From positions 16,084 through 80,083 of the forward strand of contig DATAHW010000089.1 in assembly GCA_036262935.1 (NCBI GenBank): a stretch of DNA of 64,000 nt. The letters are read 5' to 3'. Of the stretch, positions 1,776-17,320 are shown piece by piece. The notes beneath the pieces were generated by a model. It saw only the letters and a program-made list of their open reading frames with translations. It was not told the origin of the DNA and made no database searches. The DNA is from Gemmatimonadales bacterium (GTDB taxonomy: Bacteria > Gemmatimonadota > Gemmatimonadetes > Gemmatimonadales > GWC2-71-9). A program made the translations under genes and the position numbers. Each line of letters opens with the position of its first letter. The first letter of the stretch is position 1.

Positions 1776-2725
1776 CGGGCGCGCGGATCCACCCAGCTCA
1801 CCAGCGCTTCCGCCAGCAGGTTCCCCAGCACGACGAGCACCGCGCTCACCGTCGTGGCGGCCATGACCACCGGGTAGTCGCGCGCCTGCACCCCCTCGAC
1901 CAGCACGCGGCCCACGCCGGGCCAGGCGAAGATCGCCTCGATGAACACGGCGCCGGAGAAGAGGGCGGGGAGGGAAAGGCCAAGCAGGGTGACCACGGGG
2001 ATGAGCGCGTTCCGGAGCACGTGGCGGAGCGTCACCCGCGTGTCGCTCAGGCCCTTCGACCGTGCCACGGTCACATATGGCGCGCCCGCCACGTCGAGCA
2101 TGGCGCCGCGGACGAACCGCGCCGTCCCGCCGATGCCCACCAGCGTGAGCGTGGCGAGCGGCAGCGCGAGGTGACGGAGGCGGTCGGCCACCTGAGCCGC
2201 GGGCGGCAGAAAGTCGGCATCGAGTCCCGTCGCGCCGAACGCCGGCAGCAGGCGAAACCGGTAGGTGAAGACCATCACCAGCATGAGGCCGAGCCAGTAG
2301 CCCGGCAGCGCGAACAGGGTGACGCTGGCGATCGAGAGCGCCGTGTCCAGCCGCCCTCCACGCGCGGCCTGCACCACACCCACCGCGATCCCGATGAGGT
2401 AGCTCAGCACCAGCGAGAGCCCTACCAGCTCCACCGTCGCGGGCCACGCCGCGCCGAGCATCGTCCGGACCGGGCGGCCCGAGGCGATGCTGGTGCCCCA
2501 GTCTCCGCGGGCGAAGCGGCCGAGCCAGGCGGCATACTGCGCGGTGACCGGCCGGTCGAGCCCGAGCGCGTGGCGCTGCGCCTCGAGCTGCTCGGCCGTG
2601 GCGGCCGGGCCGACCAGCAGCAGGGCGGGGTCACCCGGGGCGAGGCGGATGAGCGCGAACATCAGCGTCACGACGCCGAGCACGACGCCCAGGCCGCTGA
2701 GCGCGCGGCGAGCCAGCGGAAGCAT
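1772..2725 (-). CDS. ABC transporter permease, Opp/Dpp family (DppB/OppB-like)
   Basis: ORF 1772..2929 trimmed to M69 (MLPLARRALSGLGVVLGVVTLMFALIRLAPGDPA), a typical DppB N-terminus. It has 6 TM-like segments and is translationally coupled to the downstream permease. Confidence 0.9.
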   Translation of the reverse strand: MLPLARRALSGLGVVLGVVTLMFALIRLAPGDPALLLVGPAATAEQLEAQRHALGLDRPVTAQYAAWLGRFARGDWGTSIASGRPVRTMLGAAWPATVELVGLSLVLSYLIGIAVGVVQAARGGRLDTALSIASVTLFALPGYWLGLMLVMVFTYRFRLLPAFGATGLDADFLPPAAQVADRLRHLALPLATLTLVGIGGTARFVRGAMLDVAGAPYVTVARSKGLSDTRVTLRHVLRNALIPVVTLLGLSLPALFSGAVFIEAIFAWPGVGRVLVEGVQARDYPVVMAATTVSAVLVVLGNLLAEALVSWVDPRAR

Positions 2726-4172
2726 GGGCTGCAAGATACCTTTCGCCGTGCCCCGCTGCCTCGTCGCCCTGACGCTCTCGCTCGGCGCCCTCGCCGGCTG
2801 CCAACCCCCCGCCGCCCGGCGCGGCCCCACCGTCCTCTTCGCCTCCGGCGCCGATCTCCAGAGCATCAATCCGCTGCTCACCCTCCATCCCCTCGCGCGC
2901 CAGGTGCAGCGGTACGTCCTGTTCACCACGCTTGCCCGCTACGACTCGGCGCTGGTGCCGCGGCCGTATCTCGCGCGCGAGTGGAGCTGGTCGGCCGACG
3001 GCCGTGCGCTCACCTTCCGGCTCGCGCACGGGGTGCGCTGGCACGACGGCGCGGCCACCACGGCGCGCGATGTCCGCTGGACGCTCGATGCCGCGCGCGA
3101 TCCGGTCGTGGGCTACCCCCGCGCGGCCGAGCTCGCCGGGCTCGAGAGCGTCGCGGCGGTGGACGACTCCACGGTTACCCTCCGCTTCATCGCGCCGCCG
3201 GGCCGCGTGCCCGACGTGCTGACCGATCTCGCCATCCTCCCCGCGCACCTGCTCGATACGGTGCCACGCGAGCGGCTGCGCCGCGCGGCCTGGAACGAGC
3301 AGCCGGTCGGGAACGGTCCCTTCACGTTCGTCTCGCACCAGCCCAACCGCCGCTGGGTGTTCGCCGCCAACCCCGATTTTCCCGCCGCGCTCGGCGGCCC
3401 CCCGCGGCTCGAGCGGCTGATCCTGGTGGTCGTGGACGAGCCCGCCACCAAGCTGGCCGCGCTCACCGCCGGCGAGCTGGATTTCGCGGGGATCCAGCCG
3501 GCGCACGCGAGCTTCGTCGCGCGGGATCCGGCGCTGGCCATCCTGAGCTATCCGCTGCTCCTCACCTACGGCATCGTGCTCAACACCCGGCGGGCGCCGT
3601 TCACCGATCTCGCGACCCGGCGCCGGATCGACGCGGCGATCGACCGCCGGGAGATCGTGGACGGCTATCTGTACGGCTACGGAACGCCGGCGCGTGGCCC
3701 CGTGCCTCCAGGGGTCCCCGGCTATGTTCCGGTGGCGCCGAGCACGACACCGGCGCACAGGGCCGGGCCGCCGTTCGGGTTCGAGCTCCTGACGGTGGGG
3801 AGCGGTGAGGCGCCGCTGGAGCAGATGGTGCAGGCGCGGCTCCGCGCGGCGGGAATCGACGTCAGGATTCGCCAGCTCGAGCTGTCGGCCTTTCTGGCGC
3901 GGGTCTACGGCCCGGCGCACGACTTCGATGCCGCCGTTCTCGGGATCACCGGCGACGCGGGCCTCGCGTATCTCGGCCCGCTCGCGGCGCTCGCCGGTAT
4001 CCCCGCCCCGCGGGACCCGGTGGCCGCGCAACGGATGTTTGCGGACTCGACGCCGGTCGTCTTTCTCTATCACGCACGAGGGCTGCAGGGGATGAACCGG
4101 CGGGTACACGGGGTGACGATGGACCTGCGGGGTGAGCTGCCGACCGTGCACGACTGGTGGGTGGCGCCATGA
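2724..4172 (+). CDS. ABC transporter substrate-binding lipoprotein, family 5 (peptide/nickel/opine/oligosaccharide type)
   Basis: ORF 2487..4172 trimmed to MGCKIPFAVPRCLVALTLSLGALAGCQ (lipobox LAGC). Family-5 SBP-like sequence runs throughout (LFASGADLQSINPLL, RWHDG, VVDEPATKLAALTAGELDF). Confidence 0.88.
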   Translation: MGCKIPFAVPRCLVALTLSLGALAGCQPPAARRGPTVLFASGADLQSINPLLTLHPLARQVQRYVLFTTLARYDSALVPRPYLAREWSWSADGRALTFRLAHGVRWHDGAATTARDVRWTLDAARDPVVGYPRAAELAGLESVAAVDDSTVTLRFIAPPGRVPDVLTDLAILPAHLLDTVPRERLRRAAWNEQPVGNGPFTFVSHQPNRRWVFAANPDFPAALGGPPRLERLILVVVDEPATKLAALTAGELDFAGIQPAHASFVARDPALAILSYPLLLTYGIVLNTRRAPFTDLATRRRIDAAIDRREIVDGYLYGYGTPARGPVPPGVPGYVPVAPSTTPAHRAGPPFGFELLTVGSGEAPLEQMVQARLRAAGIDVRIRQLELSAFLARVYGPAHDFDAAVLGITGDAGLAYLGPLAALAGIPAPRDPVAAQRMFADSTPVVFLYHARGLQGMNRRVHGVTMDLRGELPTVHDWWVAP

Positions 4173-5164
4173 GCCCGGTGTTCCGCGCCGCGGCGCCGCT
4201 CCGGCTGGATTTCGCCGGCGGGTGGACCGACGTGCCGCCCTGGTCGGCCCGCGAGGGCGGCGTGGTGGTGTCCGCCGCGATCGATCTCTACGCGCACGCG
4301 GAGGTTTGGCCCGGCGGCGCCGGCTTTCGCCTCTCGGCGGAGGATCTGGGCGAGCACGCCGAGCTGCCGGATCGGGCCGCGCTCGCCGGCGACGGCCCGC
4401 TTCCGCTGCTCCGCGCCGGGCTGCGGGTCCTGCCGCTGGCCGGCTGTGCTGTCACCACGCGGTCCGACGCTCCGCCCGGCTCCGGCCTCGGGAGCTCCGG
4501 TGCGCTCGATGTCGCGCTCGTGGCCGCGCTCGCCACGGCGCGCGGGGACGCGCTCGGGGCCCGCGAGATCGCCGACCTCGCGTTCCGGCTCGAACGTCTC
4601 GAAGCGGGGATTCCCGGCGGCCGCCAGGACCAGTTCACCGCGGCGTTCGGCGGCTTTCTCCAGCTCGGCTTCCGCGATCCCGAGGTGTCGGTCACGCGAC
4701 TCGACCTCGATCCCGACTTTGTCGCCGCGCTCGAGCGTCGCATGCTCGTGGTCTACACCGGTGCCTCCCGCTTTTCCGGCGCCACCATCGGCCGGGTCAT
4801 GCAGGCGTACGAGCGGGGCGACCGGCTGGTCACGGCGGCGCTGCACGGCCTGCGCGAGACCGCCGAGCGAATGGCCGAGGCGCTCCGCGCCGGCGACCTC
4901 GCGCGCGTCGGCGCGCTCCTGAATGCCAACTGGCGGCAGCAGCAGGCGCTGGACCCCGGGATGTGTACGCCCCTCATGGCCAGGCTGGGGCAGGCCATGC
5001 GGGAGAGCGGCGCGCTCGGGGGCAAGGCCGCGGGCTCGGGCGCGGGCGGCTCGATGTTCTTTCTCGGTCCCGAAGATCCTGGCCCCGCCATCGAGGCCGC
5101 GCGCGCCATGGGAACGACGCTCCTTCCCATGCGCTGGGCCGCGACGGGGGTGCGCGCGTGCTGA
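4169..5164 (+). CDS. GHMP-family sugar kinase (heptose-7-P kinase / fucokinase-like)
   Basis: GHMP motif II PPGSGLGSSGA and C-terminal GAGGSMFFL. The start ATG overlaps the SBP stop (ATGA). Confidence 0.88.
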   Translation: MSPVFRAAAPLRLDFAGGWTDVPPWSAREGGVVVSAAIDLYAHAEVWPGGAGFRLSAEDLGEHAELPDRAALAGDGPLPLLRAGLRVLPLAGCAVTTRSDAPPGSGLGSSGALDVALVAALATARGDALGAREIADLAFRLERLEAGIPGGRQDQFTAAFGGFLQLGFRDPEVSVTRLDLDPDFVAALERRMLVVYTGASRFSGATIGRVMQAYERGDRLVTAALHGLRETAERMAEALRAGDLARVGALLNANWRQQQALDPGMCTPLMARLGQAMRESGALGGKAAGSGAGGSMFFLGPEDPGPAIEAARAMGTTLLPMRWAATGVRAC

Positions 5165-7887
5165 GCGCGCCGGAGCTCGAGGCCCGGCGCGAGCTGCTGG
5201 GCGTCTCGTCCGATCTCGCGGCGCTCGCCCGACACCTCGCGGAGCGGGCGGCCCCGCTCCTCGCGCGCACTGCCCTCGTTCCCTCGGCCAAGGCGCTGCT
5301 CTCGGCCGACGGCGGCGTCTGCGCCGGGGACGGCGCGGCGCTCGTGTTCGACCCCTGGAGCCCCTCCGATCACCGCTGCCCGCGCTGCGGGCGCGCCCAC
5401 ACCGGCGAGCGGCACGATCAGGCCTGGGCGCGCTTCCAGCACCTCTGGCTCGGAGAGCGCGCCGCCACGCTCGCCACGCTCGCCGCGCTCACGGGGCACG
5501 AGGGCGCCGCCGAGGGGGCATCCCGGATTCTCTCGGCCTACGCCGCCTCGTATACCGACTTCCCCAATCGCGACAACGTGCTCGGCCCCGCCCGGCTGTT
5601 CTTCTCGACCTATCTCGAGTCCATCTGGATCACCAACTACGTCGCGGCCGCCGTGCTGCTCCGCGAGAGCGGCCACCTGGCGGATGACGTGGCCGAGGGC
5701 GTGGGACTGGTCGCGGAGGAAGCGGCCAACATCATCGGCGAGTTCGACGAAGGCTTCTCCAACCGGCAGACATGGCACAACGCCGCGCTCGCCGCCATCG
5801 CCGTCTGGTTCGAGGACGAGGAGCTCATGGCCCGGGCGGTCCAGGCGGCCAGCGGGATGCTCCCGCACCTGGTCCAGGGATTCGGCGAGGACGGGATGTG
5901 GTACGAGGGCGAGAACTATCATCTGTTCGCGCTGCGCGGGCAGCTCGTCGGCATGGGGTGGGCCCGGCAGGCCGGCGTGGAGCTGCTCGAGGACGAGCGG
6001 CTCGCCGCGCGCCTGGCCGCGGCGCTCCGCGCGCCCGCGATCAGCGCCCTCCCCGACCACACGTTCCCTGCCCGCAAGGACTCGCGCTTCGGCCTGTCGC
6101 TCGCGCAGCCGATGTACCTCGAGCTCTGGGAGGTGGGCCTCGCCCGCCTGGGCGACCCCGACTCCGAGCTCTGGAGCTGGCTCCGGGAGCTGTACGCGGC
6201 ACCCTCGCCGCGCGCCGAGACGTTCGACTCGTATCTTCACGAAGCGGGAGAGCCCGCGCCCGCGCTGCCTCGGACGCGCGCCGGCCTCTCCTGGTGGGCG
6301 CTCCTCGAAATGGTGCCCGAGCTGCCGGCGACCGCGCCGCCGTGGTCGCCCGGGCCCGCGCTGCTCGAGGGTCAGGGGCTCGCGATCCTGCGGGACGGTG
6401 CGCGCTACGCGAGCCTCGAGTGCGGCAGGTTCGGCGGCGCCCACGGCCACCCCGACCGCCTGCACCTCACGCTCCACGCCGATGGGCAGCTCTGGCTCGC
6501 CGATCCCGGCACCGGCTCGTACGTGAGTCCCGAGCTCTTCTGGTATCGCTCGACCCTGGCCCACAACGCGCCGCGGCTCGAGGGGCGCTCCCAGCCGCCG
6601 GGCGACGCCCAATGCGAAGCATTCGACGTGCAGGAGGGCTGGAGCTGGGCGCGCGGCCGCTATGGCGCGCTCACCCGCACGCTCGTGGCAGGTCCGTACC
6701 TGCTCGACGTGGTGGAGTTCAACGGCGCCGAGGACCAGATGCTCGAGCTGCCCTGGCACCTGCCGGGCCCTGTCGAGGTCGTCACGCCGGGGGACTGGAC
6801 CCCCGACCGCATCGCCGGCGAGTTCGTGGAGGCGGCCGAGCGCTTTACCGGCGCCACGGCCGGCGGCGTCAGCCTGCGTGCGACCGCTCCGGGCGGCGCG
6901 ACGCTCACTCTCCATCTCCGCTTCGAGGGTGAGCTGCTGCGGGCGAGCGCCCCCGGCCGGCCGGACCGGCCCGACCGGGCCACGTTCTATCTCGTCCGCT
7001 CGCACGGCCGCGCGATCCGGCTCGTCTCCGTGCTGGAGCCCGCCGGGGCCGTGCCCGCCGTCCGCTCCGTGTCTACCGAGGGCGGTGCGATTCTGGTAGC
7101 CACGGAAGCCGGTACCGACCGCCACCTCGCCACGGCCGAAGGCTGGGAGGTGGGAGGTGCCGCGGAGTCCGTGCGCCTCGGCGGCGCCCGGCGCGCGCCG
7201 GTCACGCCAAGAAAGCTGATCGACCTCGAGCGGCCAACGCCGGTCACCGGGATCGCGCCCCACGTCTCGCCTGCGCCAGCGCTCGATGGCACGCTCGACG
7301 GCTTCGATGCCGGCGAGCCTCTGGCCCTCGACCACGAGGACCAGTACCGCCGCAGCGAGGAGCCGTACCCCGGTCCGGAGGAGCTCTCCGCCACGCTGCT
7401 CGCCAATTGGGATGAGGAGGGTCTCTATCTCGGCGTCGACGTGGTGAAGTCGGAGGTGGTCGTCCGCCCCGGCGATGCGCCGCCGCTCCGGCTCGACAAC
7501 GAGCCGGACGACATCCACGCCGACGGGCTTCAGGTCTATCTCCGGCCCGCCCCCGATGGGCCGGTCTACGGCTTTCTCGTCGTCCTCTCGGACGAGGCGG
7601 GCGGGGTGCGGGTGCAAGTCACGCCGGGGAGCGCCGGCACGCCCGACATGGTGACCGGAGCCTGGCGGCGCACCGAAACGGGTTATGCCGTGACCCTCCG
7701 CATCGCGCCACCCGAGTGGAATTCGCGCGGAGACGACGTGCTCGGCTTCGACGTCCTGGTGAACGAGATGCGCCCGGGGCGTCTCCGCCGCGCGGGGCAG
7801 CTCGTCTGGAGCGGCGGGGGCGGCTGGGTGTATCTCCGCGGCGATCGCCAGCCGGCGGAAAGCTTCGGCGTGCTGGAGCTCGAGTGA
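5158..7887 (+). CDS. Heparinase II/III-like (polysaccharide-lyase fold) protein with a C-terminal CBM9/DOMON-like carbohydrate-binding domain; cytoplasmic (no signal peptide)
   Basis: In-frame GTG 5158 overlaps the kinase stop (GTGCTGA). Motifs include HGHPDRLHLTLHADG, WYRSTLAHNAP and an N-terminal CPRCG ribbon. The C-terminus resembles CBM9 (LDGTLDGFDAGEPL, ADGLQVYL). Track ORF 4132..7887 is over-extended. Confidence 0.8.
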   Translation: MLSAPELEARRELLGVSSDLAALARHLAERAAPLLARTALVPSAKALLSADGGVCAGDGAALVFDPWSPSDHRCPRCGRAHTGERHDQAWARFQHLWLGERAATLATLAALTGHEGAAEGASRILSAYAASYTDFPNRDNVLGPARLFFSTYLESIWITNYVAAAVLLRESGHLADDVAEGVGLVAEEAANIIGEFDEGFSNRQTWHNAALAAIAVWFEDEELMARAVQAASGMLPHLVQGFGEDGMWYEGENYHLFALRGQLVGMGWARQAGVELLEDERLAARLAAALRAPAISALPDHTFPARKDSRFGLSLAQPMYLELWEVGLARLGDPDSELWSWLRELYAAPSPRAETFDSYLHEAGEPAPALPRTRAGLSWWALLEMVPELPATAPPWSPGPALLEGQGLAILRDGARYASLECGRFGGAHGHPDRLHLTLHADGQLWLADPGTGSYVSPELFWYRSTLAHNAPRLEGRSQPPGDAQCEAFDVQEGWSWARGRYGALTRTLVAGPYLLDVVEFNGAEDQMLELPWHLPGPVEVVTPGDWTPDRIAGEFVEAAERFTGATAGGVSLRATAPGGATLTLHLRFEGELLRASAPGRPDRPDRATFYLVRSHGRAIRLVSVLEPAGAVPAVRSVSTEGGAILVATEAGTDRHLATAEGWEVGGAAESVRLGGARRAPVTPRKLIDLERPTPVTGIAPHVSPAPALDGTLDGFDAGEPLALDHEDQYRRSEEPYPGPEELSATLLANWDEEGLYLGVDVVKSEVVVRPGDAPPLRLDNEPDDIHADGLQVYLRPAPDGPVYGFLVVLSDEAGGVRVQVTPGSAGTPDMVTGAWRRTETGYAVTLRIAPPEWNSRGDDVLGFDVLVNEMRPGRLRRAGQLVWSGGGGWVYLRGDRQPAESFGVLELE

Positions 7888-9050
7888 ACGGGGCCCTTGC
7901 GGGCATCACGTCCACCGGCAGCAAGCGGCCGGAGGCGCTGTTCGGCGGGACGGTGGCCGGCGTGCCGCGCGCGATGGTCCGCTCGTCGGGCTGCCGGGTG
8001 TGGGATGCCGACGGCCGCGAGTACGTGGACTTCATCATGGCGCTCGGCGCGGTCGCGCTGGGGTACGCGCACCCGGCGGTCACCGAGGCCGCGGTGCGCG
8101 CAGTCGCGGACGGTGTCGTCGGACCGCTGCCGCCGGTGCTGGAGGAGGAGCTGGCGGAGCAGCTTCGCGCGCTGATCCCGTGGGTCGAACAGGTGCGGTT
8201 CCTCAAGACCGGCGCGGAGGCGATGGCCGCCGCGGTGCGTCTGGCGCGCACGGTAACCGGCCGCGATGCCGTGCTGGGCTGCGGCTATCATGGCTGGCTC
8301 GACTGGTCGCAGGGCCCGGACGCGTCCGGCGTGCCGGCGTCCACGCGGGCGCTCTACGCCGAGCTGCCGTTCAACGATCCCGAGCGGACCCGCGAGCGCA
8401 TTCGCCAGGCGGGCAGCACCCTCGCTGCGGTGGTGTTCGAGCCGGTGATCCTCGGCCCCCCCGACCCCGAGTGGCTCGCGGTACTCCGAGAGGAGAGCAC
8501 CCGGAGCGGCGCGATCCTCATCGCGGACGAGATCAAGACCATCGGCCGACTGGCACTGGGCGGCGGCGCGGAGCGGTTCGGCTACCGTCCGGACCTGGTG
8601 GTGATGGCCAAGGCGATTGCCAACGGCTTCCCGCTCGCCGCCGTCGGTGGCCGCCGCGACATCATGGCGGCGGTGTCGCGGACCTGGATCTCCTCGACGC
8701 TCGCCACCGAATGGGTGTCGCTGGCGGCGGCGCGGGCGACGCTGCGCATCATGGTGGAACAGGGCGCGCCCGCCCGGCTCGGGGAGCTCGGCACGCGGCT
8801 CCTGGGCGGCTTGGGCGAGCTCGCGGCGCGGTACCCCGGAGTCGTGCGCCGGGCCGCCGGGCTGCCGGAGATGTGCTGCTTCGAGTTTCACGAGCCGCCA
8901 ACGGGAGCGGCGCTCGCGGTGGAGGCGGCGCGGCGGGGCGTGCTGTTCAAACGGTCGGCGTACAACTTCGTGTCGCTGGCGCACGACGAGGCGGTGATCG
9001 ACGGCGCGCTCGGCGTGCTGGATGAGTCGCTGCGCACGATCGTCCGGTAG
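7884..9050 (+). CDS. Class-III PLP aminotransferase (glutamate-1-semialdehyde aminomutase-like)
   Basis: GTG 7884 overlaps the previous stop (GTGA). Motifs include DADGREYVDF, FLKTGAEAM, ILIADEIKT and the PLP-lysine context VVMAKAIANGFPLAAVGG. Confidence 0.88.
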   Translation: MNGALAGITSTGSKRPEALFGGTVAGVPRAMVRSSGCRVWDADGREYVDFIMALGAVALGYAHPAVTEAAVRAVADGVVGPLPPVLEEELAEQLRALIPWVEQVRFLKTGAEAMAAAVRLARTVTGRDAVLGCGYHGWLDWSQGPDASGVPASTRALYAELPFNDPERTRERIRQAGSTLAAVVFEPVILGPPDPEWLAVLREESTRSGAILIADEIKTIGRLALGGGAERFGYRPDLVVMAKAIANGFPLAAVGGRRDIMAAVSRTWISSTLATEWVSLAAARATLRIMVEQGAPARLGELGTRLLGGLGELAARYPGVVRRAAGLPEMCCFEFHEPPTGAALAVEAARRGVLFKRSAYNFVSLAHDEAVIDGALGVLDESLRTIVR

Positions 9051-9159: not shown

Positions 9160-9345
9160 ATGTCCCCGAGAAAACCCACGATCGACGACACCGACGACGT
9201 CGACGATGAAGATGGCGAGCTGGTGGAAGACGTGAATCGCGAGACCGACCTGACGCTCGAGCCGGAAGATGCCGACGACGTCGGCATGGGTGGCGACACC
9301 GAGACCGCCGAAGAGGAGGAGCTGGGCGGCGAGGCGGAGAGGTAG
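9160..9345 (+). CDS. Small hyper-acidic protein (61 aa), unknown function
   Basis: Strong SD (gaggaggccccc-ATG). The sequence is dominated by D/E (DDTDDVDDEDGELVEDV, TETAEEEELGGEAE). It ends 6 nt before the next gene and shows GC3-biased codons. Confidence 0.6.
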   Translation: MSPRKPTIDDTDDVDDEDGELVEDVNRETDLTLEPEDADDVGMGGDTETAEEEELGGEAER

Positions 9346-10152: not shown

Positions 10153-10925
10153 TGCGCATCGACGTCAACGCCTTCGTCGGCTCATACCCCTATCGGCGGG
10201 TTCCCGGCACCAGCCCCGAGGGGGTCCTCGGCGCCATGGACCGGGTCGGCATCGACGAGGCATGGGTGACTCATCTGCCCGGCCTTTTCTGGCGCGATCC
10301 TGCCGAGGGCAACGCCTGGCTGCTCGAAACCGCGGCGCGGCACGACCGGCTGCGGCCCGTGCCCTCCGTGCATCCCGGGCTCGCCGGGTGGCGGGACGTC
10401 CTCCGGCTCGCGGCCGATGCCGGCGCGCCCGCCGTCCGCGCCGATCCGACCTTCTACGGCATCGAGCCGGCGGGCGGGGCGATGCGCGCGCTCGCCGCGG
10501 CGTGTGCCGAGGCGGGGCTGCCGCTCGTGCTCGCCGTGCGTCTCGAGGACGGCCGGCAGCGGCACCCCAACGACCACGCGCCCGAGCTGCCGGCGGCCGC
10601 GGTGCGCGCGCTCGTCCGGAGCCACCCCCGCGTGCGGTTGCTGGTGACCCACGCCGACCGGCCGTTCATCGAGGAGGTGCACTTCGGCTCCACGCCCGGA
10701 GAGGCTGAGCGGCTCTGGTGGGACATCTGCTGGATCTGGGGACCGCCCGAGGACCACCTGCAGGCGCTGCTCGGCACCATCGGTGCCTCCCGCTTCGTGC
10801 TCGGCACCGGCCAGCCGCTCCGGATTCCCGAGAATGCCGCCGCGAAGCTCGACCTGCTCGACATCTCCGCCGCCGACCGGGCCGCCGTCGAAAGCGGCAA
10901 CGTGCGCACCCTCGGCCGGCCATGA
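10152..10925 (+). CDS. Second amidohydrolase-2-like TIM-barrel protein (divergent, lacks the HxH motif)
   Basis: In-frame ATG 10152 shares 1 nt with the previous stop (TGATG). It starts MRIDVNAFVGSYP instead of HxH, and also has LLVTHAD and FVLGTGQPL. Track ORF 9486..10925 is over-extended. Confidence 0.75.
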   Translation: MRIDVNAFVGSYPYRRVPGTSPEGVLGAMDRVGIDEAWVTHLPGLFWRDPAEGNAWLLETAARHDRLRPVPSVHPGLAGWRDVLRLAADAGAPAVRADPTFYGIEPAGGAMRALAAACAEAGLPLVLAVRLEDGRQRHPNDHAPELPAAAVRALVRSHPRVRLLVTHADRPFIEEVHFGSTPGEAERLWWDICWIWGPPEDHLQALLGTIGASRFVLGTGQPLRIPENAAAKLDLLDISAADRAAVESGNVRTLGRP

Positions 10926-11257
10926 CGACGTTCGAGTTCGAGCGCGAGCATTACCGCGTCGTGTATCCGGCGGGGACCAGTCCGACCTTCGTCGGCAACG
11001 GGATGGAGCGCGACGTGATCGACCTGTGTGAATCGGGCCTGCGCTACTGGGCCGCCGCCGGCGAGTCCCGGGAGATCGGCGACGAGGTGGACGGCACCAT
11101 TCGCCTTCGGCGCGGCGGCGAGCTGCGGGTGCTCGGCACCGTCGTCCGCGTGGTGGGCCGGGACGTGGCCCTGCGGCTGCTGGCCGGGGTGCCTCTCCGG
11201 GTAGTGCTCGACGAACAGCGCTACTTGCGTGACCGGCAGCGCGGCTCCGCCCGATGA
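10922..11257 (+). CDS. PilZ-domain protein (putative c-di-GMP receptor)
   Basis: ATGA overlaps at both ends. It carries RxxxR (REHYR) followed about 25 aa later by D-L-C-E-S-G, a DxSxxG-like motif with C in the S position. Size (111 aa) is typical of stand-alone PilZ. Confidence 0.7.
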   Translation: MTTFEFEREHYRVVYPAGTSPTFVGNGMERDVIDLCESGLRYWAAAGESREIGDEVDGTIRLRRGGELRVLGTVVRVVGRDVALRLLAGVPLRVVLDEQRYLRDRQRGSAR

Positions 11258-12144
11258 GCGATCGCACGGCCCTCATGGAGCGCCTCGCCTGGGGACTGGT
11301 GCCGGCGGCGCCCGTCCCGTTCCGCGGCACCGTCCTCGACGAGAGTGCCCAGCGCGGCTACGCACGCTGGATGGCCGATCATCCCGTGGCCGGCGTGGCC
11401 GTCTGGTCCCACAGCGGGCGGGGCACGCACCTCTCCGCGGAGCAGCGACGCCTGGTGCTCGACACCTGGCGCGAGGCGCTCCCGGATCGGGTGCTCGTCG
11501 CCGGCGCGCGCGACATCACGATGGCCATCGAGGCGCGTCGCGGCCGGGCCGATGCCCTCCTCGCCTTTCCCGAGCGAAACGATCCGGTGGCCTACCACGC
11601 CCGGCTCGGCCGGGAGCTGCCGGTGATCGCGTTCTGGCTGTACGAGGCGGCGGGGGGCGTGGCGTATGACGACGCGACGCTGCACCGGATCCTCGACCTC
11701 CCGGAAGTCGTCGGGATCAAGGTGGCGACCCTCGATTCCGTGATGACGTTTCAGCGACTCGCCGCCATTCTGCGCTCGCACCCCGACAAGCTGCTCATCA
11801 CCGGCGAGGACCGGTTCTTCGGCTATTCGCTCATGGCCGGCGCGCGGTCGGCGCTCGTCGGCATGGGCGCGGCGCTCCCGGACCTCCAGGCCGGGCTGCT
11901 CCGCGCCTGTGCCCAATCCGATTGGGCGACGTTTCACCGCCTGTCGACGCTGTGCGACCGCCTGGCCGAAGCCACGTTCATCGCCCCGATGGAGGGCTAC
12001 GTCCGCCGGATGCTCTGGGCCGCCGCCGCCGATGGTGCCATCCCCCCCGAGGCGTGCGACGATCCCTGGGGCCCGCCGCTCCCGTCCGAGGAGCGCCTCG
12101 CGGTGGAGCGCGCGGTGCGCGATGCACGCTCGGCTCGCGAGTGA
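11254..12144 (+). CDS. DapA/DHDPS-family class I aldolase-like protein
   Basis: Contains VVGIKVATLD (Schiff-base Lys context) and a LYEAAGG segment. ATGA coupling to PilZ. Confidence 0.8.
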   Translation: MSDRTALMERLAWGLVPAAPVPFRGTVLDESAQRGYARWMADHPVAGVAVWSHSGRGTHLSAEQRRLVLDTWREALPDRVLVAGARDITMAIEARRGRADALLAFPERNDPVAYHARLGRELPVIAFWLYEAAGGVAYDDATLHRILDLPEVVGIKVATLDSVMTFQRLAAILRSHPDKLLITGEDRFFGYSLMAGARSALVGMGAALPDLQAGLLRACAQSDWATFHRLSTLCDRLAEATFIAPMEGYVRRMLWAAAADGAIPPEACDDPWGPPLPSEERLAVERAVRDARSARE

Positions 12145-13306
12145 TTTCGAGCGGTTAGGCCGCGGCCTGCCCCGGGACGCGGCCGCGTACGTGCGCGAGG
12201 CGTACGGGATCGACCTGACCGCGCGCTACTTGGGCTACACGTTACCGCACCCCATCGGCAAGGGCTCCGGCCAGCTCTCGCTCAACACCGATCAGCTCGA
12301 CGCGGACCGCGAGGGGGGCCTCGCCTTCGTGGTGCTCAAGACGGTGATCGCCGAGGACACGGCGGGCACGCGCTCGATGGGCGCGTGGGCCGTTCACGAG
12401 GCCAGAATGCGGGTCGGCCGCCGGCGCGCCGCCGACGGCCGGGACGGCTGGACCGTCACCTGGAAAGGCAGGGGATGGGACCGGCCGTTCGACGACTATC
12501 TCGCGCTGGTGCGCGCGGCCGGCGATCTCACGCGGAGCGGCGAGCTGCTCGCCGTCCCCTCGGTGAAGTACCACCTGCCGCGCCTCGACGAGCCGTTTCG
12601 CGCGTCCGAGTATCAGCACACCACCCGGCGGTTGGCGGAGGCGTGGGGTGAAGGCGAGCTTCCCCTCGAAAAGGACTTCTCGCCCACCCTCGCCGGCGAC
12701 CCGCTGGCCGATGAGCGCGCGCGGATCCTCCGCTGGCTGCGCGAAGTCCCCCGTGAAATCCGCTCGGCCGCCGGCGCGACGCCGCTCCGGCTCGCGGTCA
12801 AGCTGATGAACGCGCGCTTCGATGACGGGTTCCAGCGCGAGATGATGGCGGCCACGGCGGGCGCGGACGCGCTCGTCTGCTTCAACCGACTGTGGGATCC
12901 GGCGGCGGAAGTGGCGTACGGCGGCTGGGACCTGAGCGCGCGGAATCTGCGGGTACTCCGGGAGGCCCGGGCGGAGCCCGCGGCGGCCGGAGCCCGGATG
13001 CCGCTCGTCGGCACCGGCAACATCTGCTCGGGCCGCGTGGTGCTGGACTACGCTCGCGCGGGTTGCGAGAGCGTGGAGCTGCACACCTTCCTTCAGCTCC
13101 CGCTGGGGGAGTACCCCGCCACGGCGGGCTCCCGCACCCAGCGCGCGCTGCACGCGCTGCTGTTTCATCCGGCCGACGGGCTCGTCGCGGGCATGTTCGA
13201 GCTGGAAGCCGCCGGTGTGCTGCACCGGCGCGGCGGGGAGCTGCGGTTTCTCGATCTGTGCGGCATGAGTGCGCCGGACGCGAAGCCGGACGAGGCACGG
13301 GCATGA
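12122..13306 (+). CDS. Dihydroorotate/dihydropyrimidine-dehydrogenase-like TIM-barrel protein (putative flavoenzyme)
   Basis: Contains HPIGKGSGQL, FVVLKTVI, LAVKLM and PLVGTGNICSG-RVVLDYARAGC, all DHOD-family-like. The start overlaps the previous gene by 23 nt. Start choice is uncertain. Confidence 0.7.
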   Translation: MHARLASDFERLGRGLPRDAAAYVREAYGIDLTARYLGYTLPHPIGKGSGQLSLNTDQLDADREGGLAFVVLKTVIAEDTAGTRSMGAWAVHEARMRVGRRRAADGRDGWTVTWKGRGWDRPFDDYLALVRAAGDLTRSGELLAVPSVKYHLPRLDEPFRASEYQHTTRRLAEAWGEGELPLEKDFSPTLAGDPLADERARILRWLREVPREIRSAAGATPLRLAVKLMNARFDDGFQREMMAATAGADALVCFNRLWDPAAEVAYGGWDLSARNLRVLREARAEPAAAGARMPLVGTGNICSGRVVLDYARAGCESVELHTFLQLPLGEYPATAGSRTQRALHALLFHPADGLVAGMFELEAAGVLHRRGGELRFLDLCGMSAPDAKPDEARA

Positions 13307-13364: not shown

Positions 13365-14495
13365 ATGCACGTCAGCCGCATCGAGCTTCACGAGCTCTCC
13401 CTCCCGCTCGCGGAGCCCTTCATCATTTCGGGAGGCACGATGACCGTCCGCCGCTCGCTCGTCGTCGTGCTCCACGACGGCGAGGGCCACCTGGGCTACG
13501 GTGAGTCGCCGCCGTTCGAGCTCCCGTTCTACTCGGAGGAGACCCTCGGCTCCGCTCGGCTGCTGCTCGAGCAGGTGCTCATGCCGCGGCTGATCGGACG
13601 CGACATCGGCGGACCGGAGGAGGTGGACGCGATCCTGCGTGCCGGCGTGCGCGGCAACCCGTTCGCCCGCGCGGCGCTCGAGACCGCGGCCTGGGACCTG
13701 GAGGCGCACCGCCGCGGCACCGGTCTCGCCGCGCTTCTCGCCGGCCGGCTGGGCGTCGCGCCCGCCCGGCGCATCTCGTGCGGCGTGGCGCTCGGCATTC
13801 CCCAGGACCGCTCCGTGGGCACGCTGCAGCGCTGGATCACCCAGGCGCTGGGCCATGGCTACCGCCGGGTCAAGATCAAGGTGGCGCCGGAGTGGGACGT
13901 GGACCCCGTGCGCGCGGCGCGCGAGGTGCTCCGTGGGACGGGCATTCCCCTGACCGTCGACGCCAACGGCGGGTACGAATGGCCGCTCCACGAGCGGAGT
14001 CTCCGCGCGCTCGACGAGGCGGAGCTCCTCTACTTCGAGCAGCCGCTCCCGCCGGACGATCTCGTGGGCCACGTGACCCTCTCACGTGTGCTCCGCACCC
14101 CGGTGTGCGTGGACGAGACGCTGCACGGCGCCCGCTGGGCGCGGCAGCTCGCCGAGCTCGAAGGCCCGCGCGTCTGGAACGTGAAGGTGCACCGGATGGG
14201 CGGTCTCACCGAGGTCTGCCGCGTGGTCGGGATCGCGCGCGACTATGGCGCGGAGCTCTGGGCCGGGACCATGCCCGAGTCCGGCCTTGGCTCGCAGGCG
14301 GCGTTGGCGGCGGCGGCGCTTCCGGGCTTCGTCTATCCGTCCGACCTGGAGCCCAGCACCCGCTGGTTCGGCCCCGGCGTGGATGTCATCGAGCTCCGCA
14401 TGGCGGCGGACGGCACCATGGAGGTGCCCGGAACATCGATCGCGGGGCTGCTGGATCCCGACGCGTTCCGCCGTTCGGCCCGGCGGTTAGATTAG
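13365..14495 (+). CDS. Enolase-superfamily enzyme (OSBS / N-acylamino-acid racemase / dipeptide epimerase subgroup)
   Basis: Contains KIKVAP, LTVDANGGY, YFEQPL and VCVDETL, the metal-ligand D/E/D pattern of the MLE subgroup. ORF 13269..14495 trimmed to ATG 13365. Confidence 0.88.
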   Translation: MHVSRIELHELSLPLAEPFIISGGTMTVRRSLVVVLHDGEGHLGYGESPPFELPFYSEETLGSARLLLEQVLMPRLIGRDIGGPEEVDAILRAGVRGNPFARAALETAAWDLEAHRRGTGLAALLAGRLGVAPARRISCGVALGIPQDRSVGTLQRWITQALGHGYRRVKIKVAPEWDVDPVRAAREVLRGTGIPLTVDANGGYEWPLHERSLRALDEAELLYFEQPLPPDDLVGHVTLSRVLRTPVCVDETLHGARWARQLAELEGPRVWNVKVHRMGGLTEVCRVVGIARDYGAELWAGTMPESGLGSQAALAAAALPGFVYPSDLEPSTRWFGPGVDVIELRMAADGTMEVPGTSIAGLLDPDAFRRSARRLD

Positions 14496-14501
14496 AGCGC
14501 C

Positions 14502-14666
14502 ATGGTCGAATACGCGCTCCTGCTCGCCAGCACCTCGTTCCGAACCTTCGCGACCGACGCGGAAACCTGGGCGGCCGGGCTGAACTGGCATGCGCTCGGC
14601 TATGCTCTCTTCGCGCTGGTAGCGCTTCGGATCGCCTTCTGGGCCTTTCGCACCTCGGACTACTGA
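14502..14666 (+). CDS. Small hydrophobic protein (54 aa), Flp-pilin-like EY motif at the N-terminus
   Basis: Below the ORF-track cutoff; my own translation is MVEYALLLASTSFRTFATDAETWAAGLNWHALGYALFALVALRIAFWAFRTSDY. It sits 6 nt after the enolase-family stop and ends 11 nt before the GH38 start. An in-frame TAG lies 3 codons upstream. Confidence 0.45.
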   Translation: MVEYALLLASTSFRTFATDAETWAAGLNWHALGYALFALVALRIAFWAFRTSDY

Positions 14667-14677
14667 GGCGCGAGGCG

Positions 14678-17320
14678 GTGCCGGGCCTCACCTTTCATCT
14701 GATCCCGCACACCCACTGGGACCGGGAGTGGTACCTCACGCGCGCCGCGTTCGCGGCGCGACTCGTTCCTGCCCTCGACGACCTGCTCGACCGGCTCGAC
14801 GCGTCGCCGGAGTTCCGCAGCTTCCTGCTGGACGGGCAGACGGTCCTGCTGGAGGACTATCTCCGCATCCGGCCGGAGCGCCGGGGGCGCGTGGCCACGC
14901 TCGTCCGCGAGGGGCGCCTGCAGGTGGGGCCCTGGTACGTGCTGGCGGACGAGTTCGTTCCCTCGGGGGAATCGCTGCTTCGGAACCTCCTGCTCGGCGC
15001 CGCTGACGCGCGCCGGCTCGGGGGGCGGAGCGACGTGCTCTACTCGCCCGATGCATTCGGCCATCCCGCGGCGTGGCCGGCGCTGGCTGCGGAGTTCGGC
15101 ATCCGGTTCGGCGTCGCCTGGCGCGGCCTTGGCGGCGACCCGGACCAGCACGGCGACCTCTACCGCTGGCACGCCCCCGACGGCCGGCCGGTGCTGCTGC
15201 ACCATCTGCCGCCAGACGGGTACGAGGCCGGCTCGGGCCTGGTGGACGAGCCGCGGCGCCTGGTGGAGGCCTGGGCCCGCCTCCGTCCCGCGCTCACGCG
15301 CCGCGCCGCGACGTCCCACATCGCAGTGCCGGTCGGCGCGGATCACCACGCCGCGCCCGCCGTGGCGCGCGTGCGGGAGCTGCTCGCGCGACTCGAGCCC
15401 GAGGCCGACGTCAGGGTCTCCCGGCTCGACGAGTACTTCCGGGCGGCCGCGGCCGCGGCCGAGGCTGGTGCGTTGCCCGAGCTCCGGGGCGAGCTCCGCA
15501 CCCACGGCTACACCTGGACGCTCCAGGGCGTGCACGCCACCCGCGCGCCCCTCAAGCGCGCTCACGCCCGGGCGGAGCTCTGGCTCGAGCGGATCGCCGA
15601 GCCCCTCGCGGCGCTCGCGCTCGCTGCCGGCCGGGGCGACCGCCGTCCCATCCTGCGGGATGCCTGGCGGATGCTGGTGCGCTCGCAGTTCCATGACTCG
15701 ATCTCGGGGTGCACCTCGGATGCGGTGGCACGGCGGGTCCTCGCGCGCACCGAAGACGCGGAGCAGGTCGCGCGCGAGGTGGCGCGCGCCAGCCTCGAAG
15801 CGCTCGCGGGCCATGATCCGGACCTCGCGCGGGACGATCCGGGGCAGACGGCGCCGCGCCTCGTGCTGTGGAACCCCGTGCCGCGGCCCCGGGCCGGCAC
15901 GGTCGTCGTGGCCGATCTGACCTGGTTCCGGCGCGACGTGCTCGTCGGTCCGCCCGGCACGCGGCTGCCGCTGGTGGGAGCGGGCGCGCGCCCGGCCTCG
16001 CTCATGACCGCGGAGGGCCGGATCCCGCTCCAGCCGCTCGGCGGTAGCACGGCACACGAGCGGCTCGATGCGCCGCACCACTACCCCGACCAGGACGAGG
16101 TGGACGTGCGCCGGGTGGCGTTTCGCGCGCCCGCGCTCGCGGGCTTCGGGCTCGGCGTGCTGGAGCCGGCGCGGGACGCACGGCCCGGCCTGGAGAGCGG
16201 CGTCCGCGCGGGCGCACGGAGCCTGGACAACGGACTCATCGCCATCCTCGTGGGCCGGGACGGCAGCGTCACCCTGTCCGACCTCCGCACCCGCATGCTC
16301 TATCCCGCGCTGCTCCGCCTCGAGTCCTCCGGCGACGTGGGCGACACCTACACCTTCGCGCCGCCTGCGCGGGACCGGGTCCGGCGGATGCGCGGCCCCG
16401 TGCGGGTGCGCCCCCTCGCGGCCGGACCGCTGGTCGGCGCGCTTGAGGTGATGGGTGCCGTCGTCTGCGCCCGGGGGCGAGTGGACGTTCGACTGGTGCT
16501 CACCATGCACGCGGGCAGTCCGGCGCTCCGCTGCACGCTCGAGTACGACAATCAGGCCACCGACCACCGACTGGTGTTCCGGCTGCCGAGCGGCGTGGCG
16601 GGCGCTCCGGCGGTGGTCGGTGGCGCGTTCGGCGCCGTCGAGCGGCCCGCCACGCCGCCGGGCGGCACGGGCACTCCGCTCGAGACGCCGGTGAAGACGG
16701 CACCAGCGCAGCGCTTCGTGGCCGTGGCGGAGCGGAGCCGTGGGCTCGCGCTCCTGGCGCCGGGGTTCTTCGAGTACGAGCTCACGGCCGCCGGCGATCT
16801 GCGCATGACCGTACTCCGCGCCGTCGGCCAGCTCTCGCGCGCCGATCTTCCCACCCGGCCTGGGCATGCGGGATGGCCCACGCCCACGCCCGGGGCCCAG
16901 TGCCTCGGTGCCGATCGGCTTCAGTTCGCGGTCGCGCCGGTGACGGGCCCGGCTCTCGCCGCCGGGACCGTGCTGCCGGAGCTGTGGGAGGACGTGTTCC
17001 TGCCGCCGGTCGCGGCCTGGCTCCGCCAGGCCACGCCGCTCCGGGCCGTCGCGTCCGACATCCGGCTGGAAGGCGCGGGCCTGGTCTTCTCGTCCATGAA
17101 GCCGGCGGAGGACGGCGATGCGCTCGTCCTCCGGTGCTACAACGCGCGCGCGGCGGACGCCGAAGGTCGCTGGCGACTGGGCCGGCCCGTGGCCCGCGCC
17201 GCGCGCGTGCGGGCGGACGAGACACGCCTTGACGAGCTCCGGCTCGAGGATGGCGGCCGTGTCATCCCGTTCGGCGCCGGCCCGCACGAGATCGTAAGCG
17301 TGCTGGTGTCGCCGGACTGA
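14678..17320 (+). CDS. Glycoside hydrolase family 38 alpha-mannosidase (cytoplasmic, MngB-like)
   Basis: In-frame GTG 14678. The N-terminus FHLIPHTHWDREWY is the GH38 signature, followed by VGPWYVLADEF and YSPDAFGH. Track ORF 13778..17320 is over-extended. Confidence 0.9.
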   Translation: MPGLTFHLIPHTHWDREWYLTRAAFAARLVPALDDLLDRLDASPEFRSFLLDGQTVLLEDYLRIRPERRGRVATLVREGRLQVGPWYVLADEFVPSGESLLRNLLLGAADARRLGGRSDVLYSPDAFGHPAAWPALAAEFGIRFGVAWRGLGGDPDQHGDLYRWHAPDGRPVLLHHLPPDGYEAGSGLVDEPRRLVEAWARLRPALTRRAATSHIAVPVGADHHAAPAVARVRELLARLEPEADVRVSRLDEYFRAAAAAAEAGALPELRGELRTHGYTWTLQGVHATRAPLKRAHARAELWLERIAEPLAALALAAGRGDRRPILRDAWRMLVRSQFHDSISGCTSDAVARRVLARTEDAEQVAREVARASLEALAGHDPDLARDDPGQTAPRLVLWNPVPRPRAGTVVVADLTWFRRDVLVGPPGTRLPLVGAGARPASLMTAEGRIPLQPLGGSTAHERLDAPHHYPDQDEVDVRRVAFRAPALAGFGLGVLEPARDARPGLESGVRAGARSLDNGLIAILVGRDGSVTLSDLRTRMLYPALLRLESSGDVGDTYTFAPPARDRVRRMRGPVRVRPLAAGPLVGALEVMGAVVCARGRVDVRLVLTMHAGSPALRCTLEYDNQATDHRLVFRLPSGVAGAPAVVGGAFGAVERPATPPGGTGTPLETPVKTAPAQRFVAVAERSRGLALLAPGFFEYELTAAGDLRMTVLRAVGQLSRADLPTRPGHAGWPTPTPGAQCLGADRLQFAVAPVTGPALAAGTVLPELWEDVFLPPVAAWLRQATPLRAVASDIRLEGAGLVFSSMKPAEDGDALVLRCYNARAADAEGRWRLGRPVARAARVRADETRLDELRLEDGGRVIPFGAGPHEIVSVLVSPD

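Follow-up and report, generated by a model that had tools for sequence, protein, structure and literature searches.

A conserved multi-enzyme operon of Gemmatimonadota with a candidate role in the import and cytoplasmic breakdown of a mannose-containing oligosaccharide

The DNA analyzed here, a stretch of 64,000 nucleotides referred to as the window, comes from a Gemmatimonadales bacterium (GenBank assembly GCA_036262935.1, contig DATAHW010000089.1, positions 16,084 to 80,083) and has a base composition of 73% G+C. It carries an operon of 13 plus-strand genes (g1 to g13, 2724-17320), delimited with a third-position GC frame plot and translation, that begins with a family-5 solute-binding protein (SBP) and continues with a GHMP kinase, a polysaccharide lyase-like enzyme, an aminotransferase, paired amidohydrolases, three further enzymes and a GH38 hydrolase, together with three small genes. 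We find that this operon is real and has been vertically inherited across the phylum Gemmatimonadota. As to its function, we see about an even chance that it serves the import and cytoplasmic catabolism of an acidic, amino-bearing, α-mannose-containing oligosaccharide or of a glycoconjugate or glycolipid head group of this kind. Import through an SBP with subsequent degradation of the glycan in the cytoplasm is a known design; the enzyme set is new. Families were assigned with Pfam and NCBIfam models at their own cut-offs, with sequence matches in the PDB and with AlphaFold2 (AF2) models compared by Foldseek.

The proteins of the window were compared by tblastn with 87 related loci, and a gene was scored only in those loci whose contig extends to its place. 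By this count (loci with the gene/loci reaching it), the SBP gene g1 is present in 70/70 loci, the kinase gene g2 in 78/78, the aminotransferase gene g4 in 73/73, and the OppB-type and OppC-type permease genes that diverge from the operon in 66/66 and 61/62. The amidohydrolase pair is found in about 88% (g6 in 57/65, g7 in 57/64) and the trio g9, g10 and g11 in about 82-86% (51/59, 46/56 and 46/56, respectively). The GH38 gene, g13, is linked in 35 of the 39 loci with a full ±10 kb, lying downstream, as in the window, in 27 and upstream of the permeases in 8. The operon is thus layered: transporter, lyase-like enzyme and aminotransferase form an invariant core; kinase, amidohydrolase pair and GH38 form a near-invariant shell; g9-g11 are a frequent extension, and the small genes are lineage-specific. 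The original prediction, made from the sequence of the window, had taken the 13 genes as one pathway. The unit itself is real, and the cluster is indeed syntenic and translationally coupled in relatives and so withstands the refutation test set with that prediction, but a 13-gene pathway is an overstatement, because the PilZ-domain gene g8 is lineage-specific, g5 and g12 occur only in some loci, and GH38 and the trio are detachable.

Relatives in which g3 is only 35-40% identical are Gemmatimonadota wherever they are named. Their gene order is OppCB (minus strand)/SBP-kinase-lyase-like-SpoU methylase-aminotransferase-amidohydrolase-amidohydrolase-DHDPS-DHOD-like-MLE, and the cluster usually adjoins the genes of alternative complex III (ACIII); GH38 lies upstream in three of these loci and is not within 10 kb in three. 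A metagenome scan returned no matches with a single-protein query and did return matches with an alignment as query; in a separate set of metagenome loci, those of the L125/L133 type have GH38 upstream of the permeases. In many lineages the operon contains an internal SpoU/TrmJ-like RNA methyltransferase gene (241-249 amino acids; PF00588, 97.5 bits) with overlapping junctions, for example at 12762-13511 in L062 and, in L083-L087, between the lyase-like and aminotransferase genes. The window lacks this gene, and g3 and g4 overlap directly (GTGA).

Direct reading confirmed the predicted arrangement of 13 tightly coupled genes with seven overlapping or abutting junctions: ATGA at 4169, 10922 and 11254, GTGA at 7884, GTGCTGA at 5158, TGATG at 10150-10154, and an overlap of 23 nucleotides between g9 and g10 (12122-12144). 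The start of g11 is most likely ATG 13365, not GTG 13269, as relatives in the PDB align from that methionine, which therefore leaves a gap of 58 nucleotides after g10. The start of g13, read alongside the N-terminus of an orthologue, is GTG 14678, 11 nucleotides past the stop of the 54-residue gene g12. Over the 87 related loci, the median gaps are -4 nucleotides for g2/g3, +2 for g6/g7 and -2 for g9/g10; the coupling of the operon genes is not due to chance. The ATG of the OppB-like gene (minus strand, 2725), a start that agrees with orthologue N-termini, and the ATG of g1 (2724) share a CATG palindrome (2723-2726), so that the two start codons overlap by 2 nucleotides and there is no intergenic space for a promoter. 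The same spacing is seen in the closest relatives (a tblastn gap of 73 nucleotides in L003, L004, L006-L008, L012, L014 and L023), and OppB and SBP genes are 100-500 nucleotides apart in more distant loci.

The lyase-like enzyme g3 (5158-7887) is a cytoplasmic protein matching Hepar_II_III_C (PF07940) and Alginate_lyase (PF05426) that combines a PL17-like fold with a Zn-ribbon-like Cys3His insert in its N-terminal part and a CBM9-like domain at its C-terminus. Comparison of its AF2 model (pLDDT 79) with the PDB gives a two-domain fold, an (α/α)6 toroid plus an antiparallel β-sandwich, for which Foldseek finds PL17 Alg17c closest (E = 3e-21, target-normalized TM-score 0.67-0.70, 16% identity), followed by PL15 Atu3025, dermatan-sulfate epimerase and heparinase III. 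The CBM9-like domain matches 1i82 by fold (TM-score 0.71), and PF06452 matches homologues. In a profile alignment, Tyr258, Tyr450, Asn201 and the His/Asp metal site of Alg17c correspond to Y254, Y455, N202, and H429/H431/D433 and H469 of g3, residues that are invariant in 23 orthologues and that relatives of 27-36% identity retain. Down to this level, six motifs show no variation: C...HxCPxCG, (S/N)NRQ, EG(E/D)NYH, GHGHPD, GTGxY and WYRSxxxHN. The oligoalginate-lyase model NF042990 gives only 23.6 bits against a cut-off of 1400. The g3 proteins therefore form a distinct family, evidently a functional one, in which a PL17-like fold goes with an altered catalytic constellation; its members may be lyases, epimerases or enzymes of another kind.

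About 1,960 clusters at 50% identity match g3 at E ≤ 0.001, and its relatives occur in at least 316 species-level genomes when one genome per GTDB species is scanned; the best 80 of the 316 are all Gemmatimonadales or Gemmatimonadota. The best homologues (97%, then 62-92% identity) come from metagenome-assembled genomes of Gemmatimonadales. Against plasmids, tblastn of g3 gave only four weak partial matches, of use solely as annotated precedents for a heparinase II/III family protein encoded after an ABC importer.

The kinase g2 (4169-5164; PF00288, 57.3 bits; PF08544, 42.6 bits) belongs to the HddA/WcbL/fucokinase branch of GHMP sugar kinases, that is, anomeric kinases. Its phosphate-binding motif PPGSGLGSS at residue 102 is conserved in 77 orthologues, its nearest PDB entries are 3k85 (2e-41) and WcbL 4usk (7e-37), of the manno-heptose anomeric kinase type, and the HddA model gives 137.7 bits against a cut-off of 600. 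The class-III aminotransferase g4 (7884-9050; Aminotran_3, PF00202, 161 bits), with its pyridoxal phosphate lysine at Lys243 in MAKAIANG, falls into the branch of GSA-aminomutases and sugar C-6' aminotransferases: in the PDB it matches GSA-aminomutase (1e-52) and, along its whole length, C-6' aminotransferases of the GenB type (1e-40), and it stays below the cut-off of HemL models (210 vs 398). A g4-like aminotransferase in Methylomagnum sits in a glycan-biosynthesis cluster.

The amidohydrolases form a pair of unequal members. The metal-dependent Amidohydro_2 protein g6 (9352-10152; PF04909, 96.3 bits) has D4, H6, H8, H173 and D224 invariant in 64 orthologues, corresponding to the HxH, the distal His and the strand-8 Asp, and its nearest PDB matches are ACMSD-type decarboxylases. 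It is the most conserved protein of the operon, with 59-64% identity in deep relatives, compared with 51-58% for g7; g3 is the least conserved. The divergent paralogue g7 (10152-10925) lacks the HxH and always abuts g6 (median gap 2 nucleotides); its orthologues match PF04909, and the copy in the window has neither a Pfam nor a PDB match. Judging by these sequences, g7 is probably a partner subunit of the catalytic g6, and the two are expected to work as one enzyme because they are fused into a single protein in haloarchaea. A g6-like match was also seen in Chlorohelix, where the gene context is uninformative.

At the end of the operon lies g13 (14678-17320), a cytoplasmic GH38 hydrolase similar to MngB and SpGH38. 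All four GH38 Pfam domains (N, middle, C and C2) exceed their cut-offs, with 114.8, 42.7, 26.3 and 32.4 bits; the SpGH38 structure 2wyh matches at 2e-77, and the MngB model gives 376.6 bits vs a cut-off of 1138. We take HTHWD (residue 11) to be the HxHxD-type metal-binding motif of GH38 and PDAFGH (residue 124) to be its Asp nucleophile motif.

Import would depend on g1 (2724-4172), a family-5 solute-binding lipoprotein (SBP_bac_5, PF00496; lipobox LAGC at residue 23), and on the two divergent minus-strand permeases upstream of it, OppB-type (1772-2725; PF00528 and PF19300; Opp2B 258 bits vs a cut-off of 350) and OppC-type (930-1775; PF00528; ATG at 1775; Opp4C 238 and Opp2C 232 bits, below their cut-offs). 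In the general families, SBP_bac_5 and the two BPD_transp_1 permeases score 216, 130 and 88 bits. The best NCBIfam models for g1 are NikA, Opp4A and GsiB, the first giving 84.6 bits vs a cut-off of 393, and no specific SBP equivalog (NikA, OppA, DppA, GsiB or CntA) reaches its cut-off. These scores do not decide the ligand, as sugar-binding family-5 SBPs may be absent from the model library. Import of nickel or a metallophore, which the best permease and SBP models would suggest, was rejected, as all scores are below cut-off and the rest of the operon does not fit. By inspection, a hydrophobic leader, here a lipoprotein signal, is found at the N-terminus of g1 only; this agrees with the claim that no enzyme has a signal peptide, and a scheme of import first and enzyme action in the cytoplasm afterward fits.

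Homologues of several of these proteins are also linked outside the phylum. On haloarchaeal megaplasmids (L088-L092; for example NZ_CP101160.1, 340236-341930), g6-like and g7-like sequences are fused into one protein of about 560 amino acids. A g4-like class-III aminotransferase (35% identity over its full length, 188-217 bits) adjoins the fusion gene in L090, is nearby in L091, or is encoded elsewhere on the same replicon. The fusion loci are rich in sulfatase, DegT, Gfo/Idh/MocA, RidA and ceramidase-like genes and ABC importers, and from this content they appear to be uncharacterized glycan-catabolic islands. Distant members of the g3 family sit in other lineages (contig G+C 35-67%). There, L098 has the order amidohydrolase-amidohydrolase-lyase-like and L105 the order GH38-DegT-amidohydrolase-amidohydrolase-Gfo/Idh/MocA-lyase-like, the g6/g7 pair being reversed in both; in L099 a sugar ABC importer of the SBP1 type is followed by the lyase-like gene and then a Gfo/Idh/MocA gene; L100 combines the lyase-like gene with a ceramidase-like gene, DegT and an SSF symporter; and the lyase-like gene lies near a GH92 α-mannosidase in L106 and near GH38 in L107. 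Glp-like glycerol-metabolism genes are close to the module in two low-GC loci. What recurs outside the phylum, in differing orders and with different kinds of importer, is the set of lyase-like enzyme, paired amidohydrolase, aminotransferase and α-mannosidase, and the module is in every case joined by an aminotransferase of class III or the DegT type. Such linkage survives rearrangement, unlike fixed synteny within one phylum, and therefore better supports functional coupling.

Taken together, these families suggest the nature of the substrate. Its α-mannose is suggested by GH38/GH92 and the manno-type anomeric kinase, a uronic acid by the enzyme resembling PL17, PL15 and heparinases, and an amino or N-acyl group by the aminotransferase and amidohydrolase. 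A mannose-containing substrate had already been proposed in the original prediction, and the proposal gains support from the linkage of GH38 in two different orders and from GH38 and GH92 near distant lyase-like homologues; the amino part gains support from the constant presence of an aminotransferase. From protein families and gene context, we infer the following steps, including the division of roles among g4, g6/g7 and g9-g11. The SBP lipoprotein and the OppB/OppC-type permeases would import the compound with ATPases encoded elsewhere, and GH38 would take off α-mannosyl residues. The lyase-like enzyme would carry out β-elimination, or a related abstraction of the C-5 proton, on a 4-substituted uronic-acid residue, employing a Tyr-His pair and Asn-Arg-Gln where PL17 enzymes have Asn-His. 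The HddA-like kinase, translationally coupled to g3, would place a phosphate on C-1 of the released manno-type sugar. The aminotransferase and the putative heteromeric Amidohydro_2 enzyme may handle that portion of the sugar which carries the amino or N-acyl group or the lactone, and g9-g11, where present, might turn the keto-deoxy or N-acyl-amino acid so formed into metabolites of central pathways.

Several observations weigh against this reading: (i) The catalytic His202 of Alg17c corresponds to Arg203 in g3, and the NRQ motif is invariant throughout the family, so the lyase chemistry of g3 is unproven. (ii) The canonical enzymes of uronate catabolism (KduI/KduD, DEH reductase, KdgK, Eda and GH88) are absent from the operon. 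(iii) The SBP and permeases score best with models of the Ni/Co and peptide types, not the sugar type, although all below cut-off. (iv) No OppD/OppF ATPase gene lies beside the permeases in the window or in L001 and L083-L087. (v) No regulator gene is present at the locus, either in the window or in the related loci examined. (vi) The L125/L133-type deep clade lacks the GHMP kinase, the lyase-like gene there coming directly after that of the SBP. (vii) The internal housekeeping SpoU/TrmJ-like gene and the adjacency to ACIII would fit a constitutive core function equally well. (viii) In L105 the module abuts co-directional genes for glycosyltransferases (WecG/TagA-type and GT4) and an acyltransferase. 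At positions 1-930 of the window there is instead a lipoprotein-like open reading frame on the minus strand.

A more specific version of the catabolic reading, which we put forward as speculation and hold to be improbable, is that several bacterial lineages, with parts in haloarchaea, possess an undescribed cytoplasmic pathway, built on a new family of polysaccharide-lyase-like enzymes (PL17-like fold, Tyr-His/Asn-Arg-Gln active site, Zn ribbon and CBM9 domain) together with a heteromeric Amidohydro_2 enzyme and an aminotransferase, that would dismantle head groups with α-mannosyl or hexosaminyl residues linked 1→4 to glucuronic acid, the lyase-like enzyme releasing the manno-sugar for the coupled kinase. 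A glycolipid head group would fit because the neighbors include GH38, GH92, ceramidase-like, Gfo/Idh/MocA and Glp-like genes. Plant and fungal glycosyl-inositol-phosphoceramides contain such 1→4 linkages of mannosyl or hexosaminyl residues to glucuronic acid, as do the mannosyl-glucuronosyl-diacylglycerol anchors that occur in actinobacteria.

The last two of the eight points above lead to an alternative that we consider unlikely, namely that the operon recycles or remodels the cell's own envelope glycan or glycolipid from re-imported periplasmic fragments, as a housekeeping rather than a nutritional function. Vertical inheritance throughout the phylum, the stable ACIII neighborhood and the tolerated SpoU/TrmJ-like gene would agree with such a function, the L105 arrangement places the module beside biosynthetic genes, and the SBP is a periplasmic lipoprotein. 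However, none of the Gemmatimonadota loci examined has a glycosyltransferase, flippase or nucleotidyl-transferase gene, homologous modules elsewhere go together with nutrient importers of four kinds, and GH38 and the g9-g11 trio have been lost in some lineages.

The trio bears on a second alternative. The first of its members, g9 (11254-12144; PF00701, 29.4 bits vs a cut-off of 22.1), is a divergent class-I (Schiff-base) aldolase or dehydratase of the DHDPS/NAL family, with PDB matches to DHDPS/NAL at about 1e-7. Its Schiff-base Lys156 (GIKVAT) does not vary among 50 orthologues, and on direct reading the substrate-carboxylate motif G(T/S)TGE (GTTGE) is replaced by SHSGR; no NCBIfam equivalog is reached, with no match to KdgD and only weak ones to NanA and DapA. 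The second, g10 (12122-13306), is an orphan TIM barrel that resembles DHOD/DPD by fold and putatively binds flavin mononucleotide (FMN). DHO_dh scores 12.9 bits vs a cut-off of 27, no Pfam model exceeds its cut-off and the PDB match to DHODH is weak (8e-4); an AF2 model of moderate confidence (pLDDT 64) matches the FMN domains of DHODH and DPD (Foldseek E = 2.5e-12, TM-score 0.52-0.65). The stretch at the catalytic Cys/Ser loop (SCPN/SSPN) reads PSVKYHLP, in a region where residue-level alignment is unreliable. Its best 120 homologues all lack Pfam domains, those with a name being called 'hypothetical protein', and tblastn of g10 against 72,556 plasmids gave zero matches. The third, g11 (13365-14495), has the N- and C-terminal MR_MLE domains of the enolase superfamily and belongs to the NSAR/OSBS subfamily (TIGR01928, 204 bits vs a cut-off of 200.65; PDB entries 3mwc at 2e-83 and NAAAR 2zc8 at 4e-66). 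It has K170-x-K172, D199, E225, D250, K274 and R277, most of which are conserved in 40 orthologues.

In the second alternative, which we judge quite unlikely, the operon is a composite in which a transport and sugar module is co-transcribed with an unrelated amino-acid module, g9-g11, acting for example on N-acyl-D/L-amino acids or a cyclic amide. In L084, L086 and L087 the trio is absent or reduced to fragments, and in the L060-type clade none of g6-g11 lies within 10 kb, while the rest of the cluster persists; an unrelated SpoU gene is tolerated within the operon as well. To our knowledge, the substrates of the NSAR/OSBS enzymes characterized to date are N-succinyl amino acids or 2-succinyl-6-hydroxy-2,4-cyclohexadiene-1-carboxylate (SHCHC), not sugars, and the combination of a DHOD/DPD-like protein, an amidohydrolase and a class-III aminotransferase may echo reductive pyrimidine or hydantoin chemistry. 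On the other side, about 82-86% of loci keep the trio attached through junctions that overlap, over a g3 identity range of 35-95%, and there is no second transporter or regulator to set off a separate unit. In L086 (16278-17196) and L087 (17157-17576), mere fragments of DHDPS-like, DHOD-like and NSAR-like genes follow the amidohydrolase pair, which may reflect gene decay or an assembly error in these low-coverage long-read assemblies. We also considered a mirror of the succinylase pathway of diaminopimelate synthesis, made up of DapA-like, DapC-like, NSAR and desuccinylase proteins, and rejected it, since nothing beyond family names speaks for it.

The original prediction leaned toward salvage of a glyco-amino or glycopeptide-like compound. 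In a reading along this line, a glycopeptide or murein peptide would be salvaged through MppA-like import and an enolase-family enzyme that epimerizes a dipeptide, which we regard as very improbable. The SBP5/Opp family does include MppA and OppA, the MLE subgroup of enolases includes Ala-Glu epimerases, and genes for an M1 peptidase and a secreted M19 dipeptidase lie just downstream. However, g11 is of the NSAR/OSBS type, and the L-Ala-D/L-Glu epimerase models NF011708 and NF041118 give it only 61.9 bits vs 343 and 51.4 bits vs 500; OppA/MppA-type models give the weakest SBP scores (28.6 bits); the operon has no MpaA-, LdcA- or AmpD-type gene and thus no murein-peptide amidase or carboxypeptidase; the homologues of g3, g4 and g6/g7 have sugar-type neighborhoods; and the M1 gene, apparently an insertion, is absent from L001. 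The predicted families are right overall, with the enolase-superfamily protein reassigned in this way and the lyase-like protein refined to a PL17-like fold with a CBM9-like domain.

A biosynthetic or cofactor role, with g11 as MenC (o-succinylbenzoate synthase) or the operon building a sugar-derived metabolite, would agree with the OSBS cut-off that g11 barely passes and with the biosynthetic setting of the Methylomagnum aminotransferase; it is highly improbable, as an SBP-dependent importer heads the operon, nucleotidyl- and glycosyl-transferases are absent and g11 has been lost from the cluster in some lineages. The MenC identity in particular was set aside because no other men genes occur in the window or the related loci and because the futalosine pathway is the one that Gemmatimonadales reportedly prefer (PMC9426454). 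OSBS activity of g11 would then not be needed, as in Thermus and Deinococcus, which use the futalosine route.

The remaining genes, the acidic g5, the PilZ-domain g8 and the membrane protein g12, are accessory. The 61-residue, highly acidic g5 (9160-9345) has its own strong Shine-Dalgarno sequence, GGTGAGGAGG, upstream and no family match among the Pfam and NCBIfam models. Sequences of this type, MSPRKPT(I/V)DD(T/A)DDVDDEDG..., precede the amidohydrolase pair in several loci (for example at 14366-14575 in L008); homologues of 62-69 residues are encoded in L002 and L008, tblastn finds g5 in 6 loci, and fewer than 12 loci have it in all. It is absent where the gap between g4 and g6 is 12-50 nucleotides. 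The PilZ-domain protein g8 (10922-11257) is a lineage-specific insertion found in about 11 of 52 loci, as counted by tblastn and a g7-g9 gap of 330-384 nucleotides. Its match to PF07238 is marginal (24 bits vs 22.5); RxxxR is present at residue 8 (REHYR), and the (D/N)xSxxG motif reads DLCESG, with Cys for Ser. The small membrane protein g12 (14502-14666; 54 residues, MVEYALLLA...) has tblastn matches in 29 loci and no family match above cut-off; its homologues include a 58-residue protein in L033 (19027-19203) that likewise starts MVEYALLLA and a 55-residue one in L001. This start resembles the mature N-terminus of Flp-type pilins, but g12 has neither a leader peptide nor a Pfam Flp match.

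Downstream of the operon, the convergent M1 peptidase gene (17329-19344) is followed by a CxxCxxCC-domain gene (19503-19883) and the secreted M19 dipeptidase gene (19880-21166). In L001 (21847-22727) GH38 is followed directly by such a pair, a CxxCxxCC-domain gene and one for a secreted M19 dipeptidase, and the M1 gene is absent; the M1 gene of the window looks like an insertion separating GH38 from this pair. Between positions 800 and 19800, a σ70 promoter scan found none and an intrinsic-terminator scan found seven matches, all weak and inside genes; both scans are uninformative in an organism of such high G+C content. Rfam finds only three tRNAs in the whole window (32088-32284 and 44845-44918), none near the operon, and the 109-nucleotide spacer between g4 and g5 folds no better than shuffled sequence (z = 0.58).

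No characterized locus matched the operon, in agreement with the original prediction: no NCBIfam equivalog cut-off is reached except for the generic OSBS/NSAR model, and the papers found on heparinase, mannosidase, GH38 and polysaccharide lyase in Gemmatimonadetes/Gemmatimonadota, or on inositol phosphorylceramide in connection with polysaccharide lyase, do not describe it. Partial likenesses to known systems are nonetheless apparent. The PL17 (Alg17c), PL15 (Atu3025, Agrobacterium) and Sphingomonas A1 alginate systems share SBP-dependent ABC import followed by a cytoplasmic two-domain enzyme, and Alg17c, the best structural match of g3, shares its catalytic Tyr and His/Asp metal site. The systems differ in the low identity of g3 to Alg17c, in its invariant Arg in place of His202 and its Tyr-His dyad, in its extra Zn-ribbon-like insert and CBM9-like domain, in an SBP of family 5 instead of family 1, and in the lack of DEH reductase, KdgK and Eda in the operon.

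In the oxidative hexuronate pathway of Agrobacterium tumefaciens (Udh, Gli, Gci, KdgD and KGSA dehydrogenase), an amidohydrolase lactone isomerase, an MLE-type cycloisomerase and a DHDPS-family dehydratase/decarboxylase act in series (PMC6353982). The operon has the same three superfamilies, a likeness at the superfamily level only, and an aminotransferase resembling GSA-aminomutase might plausibly accept the product of that route, 2,5-dioxopentanoate. However, the operon lacks Udh and a KGSA or other aldehyde dehydrogenase and has a DHOD-like flavoprotein instead. Orthology to this pathway was rejected, because g11 is an NSAR/OSBS protein, g9 has no KdgD match and g6 is nearest to ACMSD-type enzymes. 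A second analogy, likewise with no orthology behind it, is that a 2-acylamino-aldonic acid counts in formal terms as an N-acyl α-amino acid, the substrate class of NSAR enzymes.

As is predicted for g13, its best-matching GH38 enzymes, E. coli MngB of the MngAB system and streptococcal SpGH38, act in the cytoplasm on imported α-mannosides; g13 is far below the MngB equivalog cut-off and is one detachable part of a larger module, and a 6-phospho substrate is not expected for it because import is by an ABC system, not by a phosphotransferase system as in MngAB. With the NSAR/OSBS enzymes of Amycolatopsis, Deinococcus and Thermus and of the D-to-L conversion operon of Geobacillus, g11 shares the subfamily, all catalytic and metal ligands and an Arg three residues after the second Lys, but it lacks a succinyl-transferase (GNAT) or M20 desuccinylase partner and stands in a sugar-type context. 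The haloarchaeal fused double Amidohydro_2 proteins (for example WP_254810888.1 and WP_276256064.1; 26-35% identity to g6/g7) likewise come with a g4-like gene and ABC importers; their loci differ in having no homologue of g3, the kinase or GH38 and in their wealth of sulfatase, DegT, Gfo/Idh/MocA and ceramidase-like genes.

Gemmatimonadota are among the most abundant phyla in soil, with few cultured members and a largely uncharacterized biochemistry, and the operon described here is among their most conserved multi-enzyme loci. It contains at least three enzyme families without a studied member: the PL17-like proteins with a changed motif, the two-subunit Amidohydro_2 enzymes that are fused in archaea, and the orphan DHOD-like proteins. 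The recurrent gene neighborhoods provide a concrete, testable set of candidate substrates. Solving the substrate could add a CAZy-type family and a new physiological context for NSAR/OSBS and DHDPS proteins, and its identity would show what Gemmatimonadota take up in soil and sediment.

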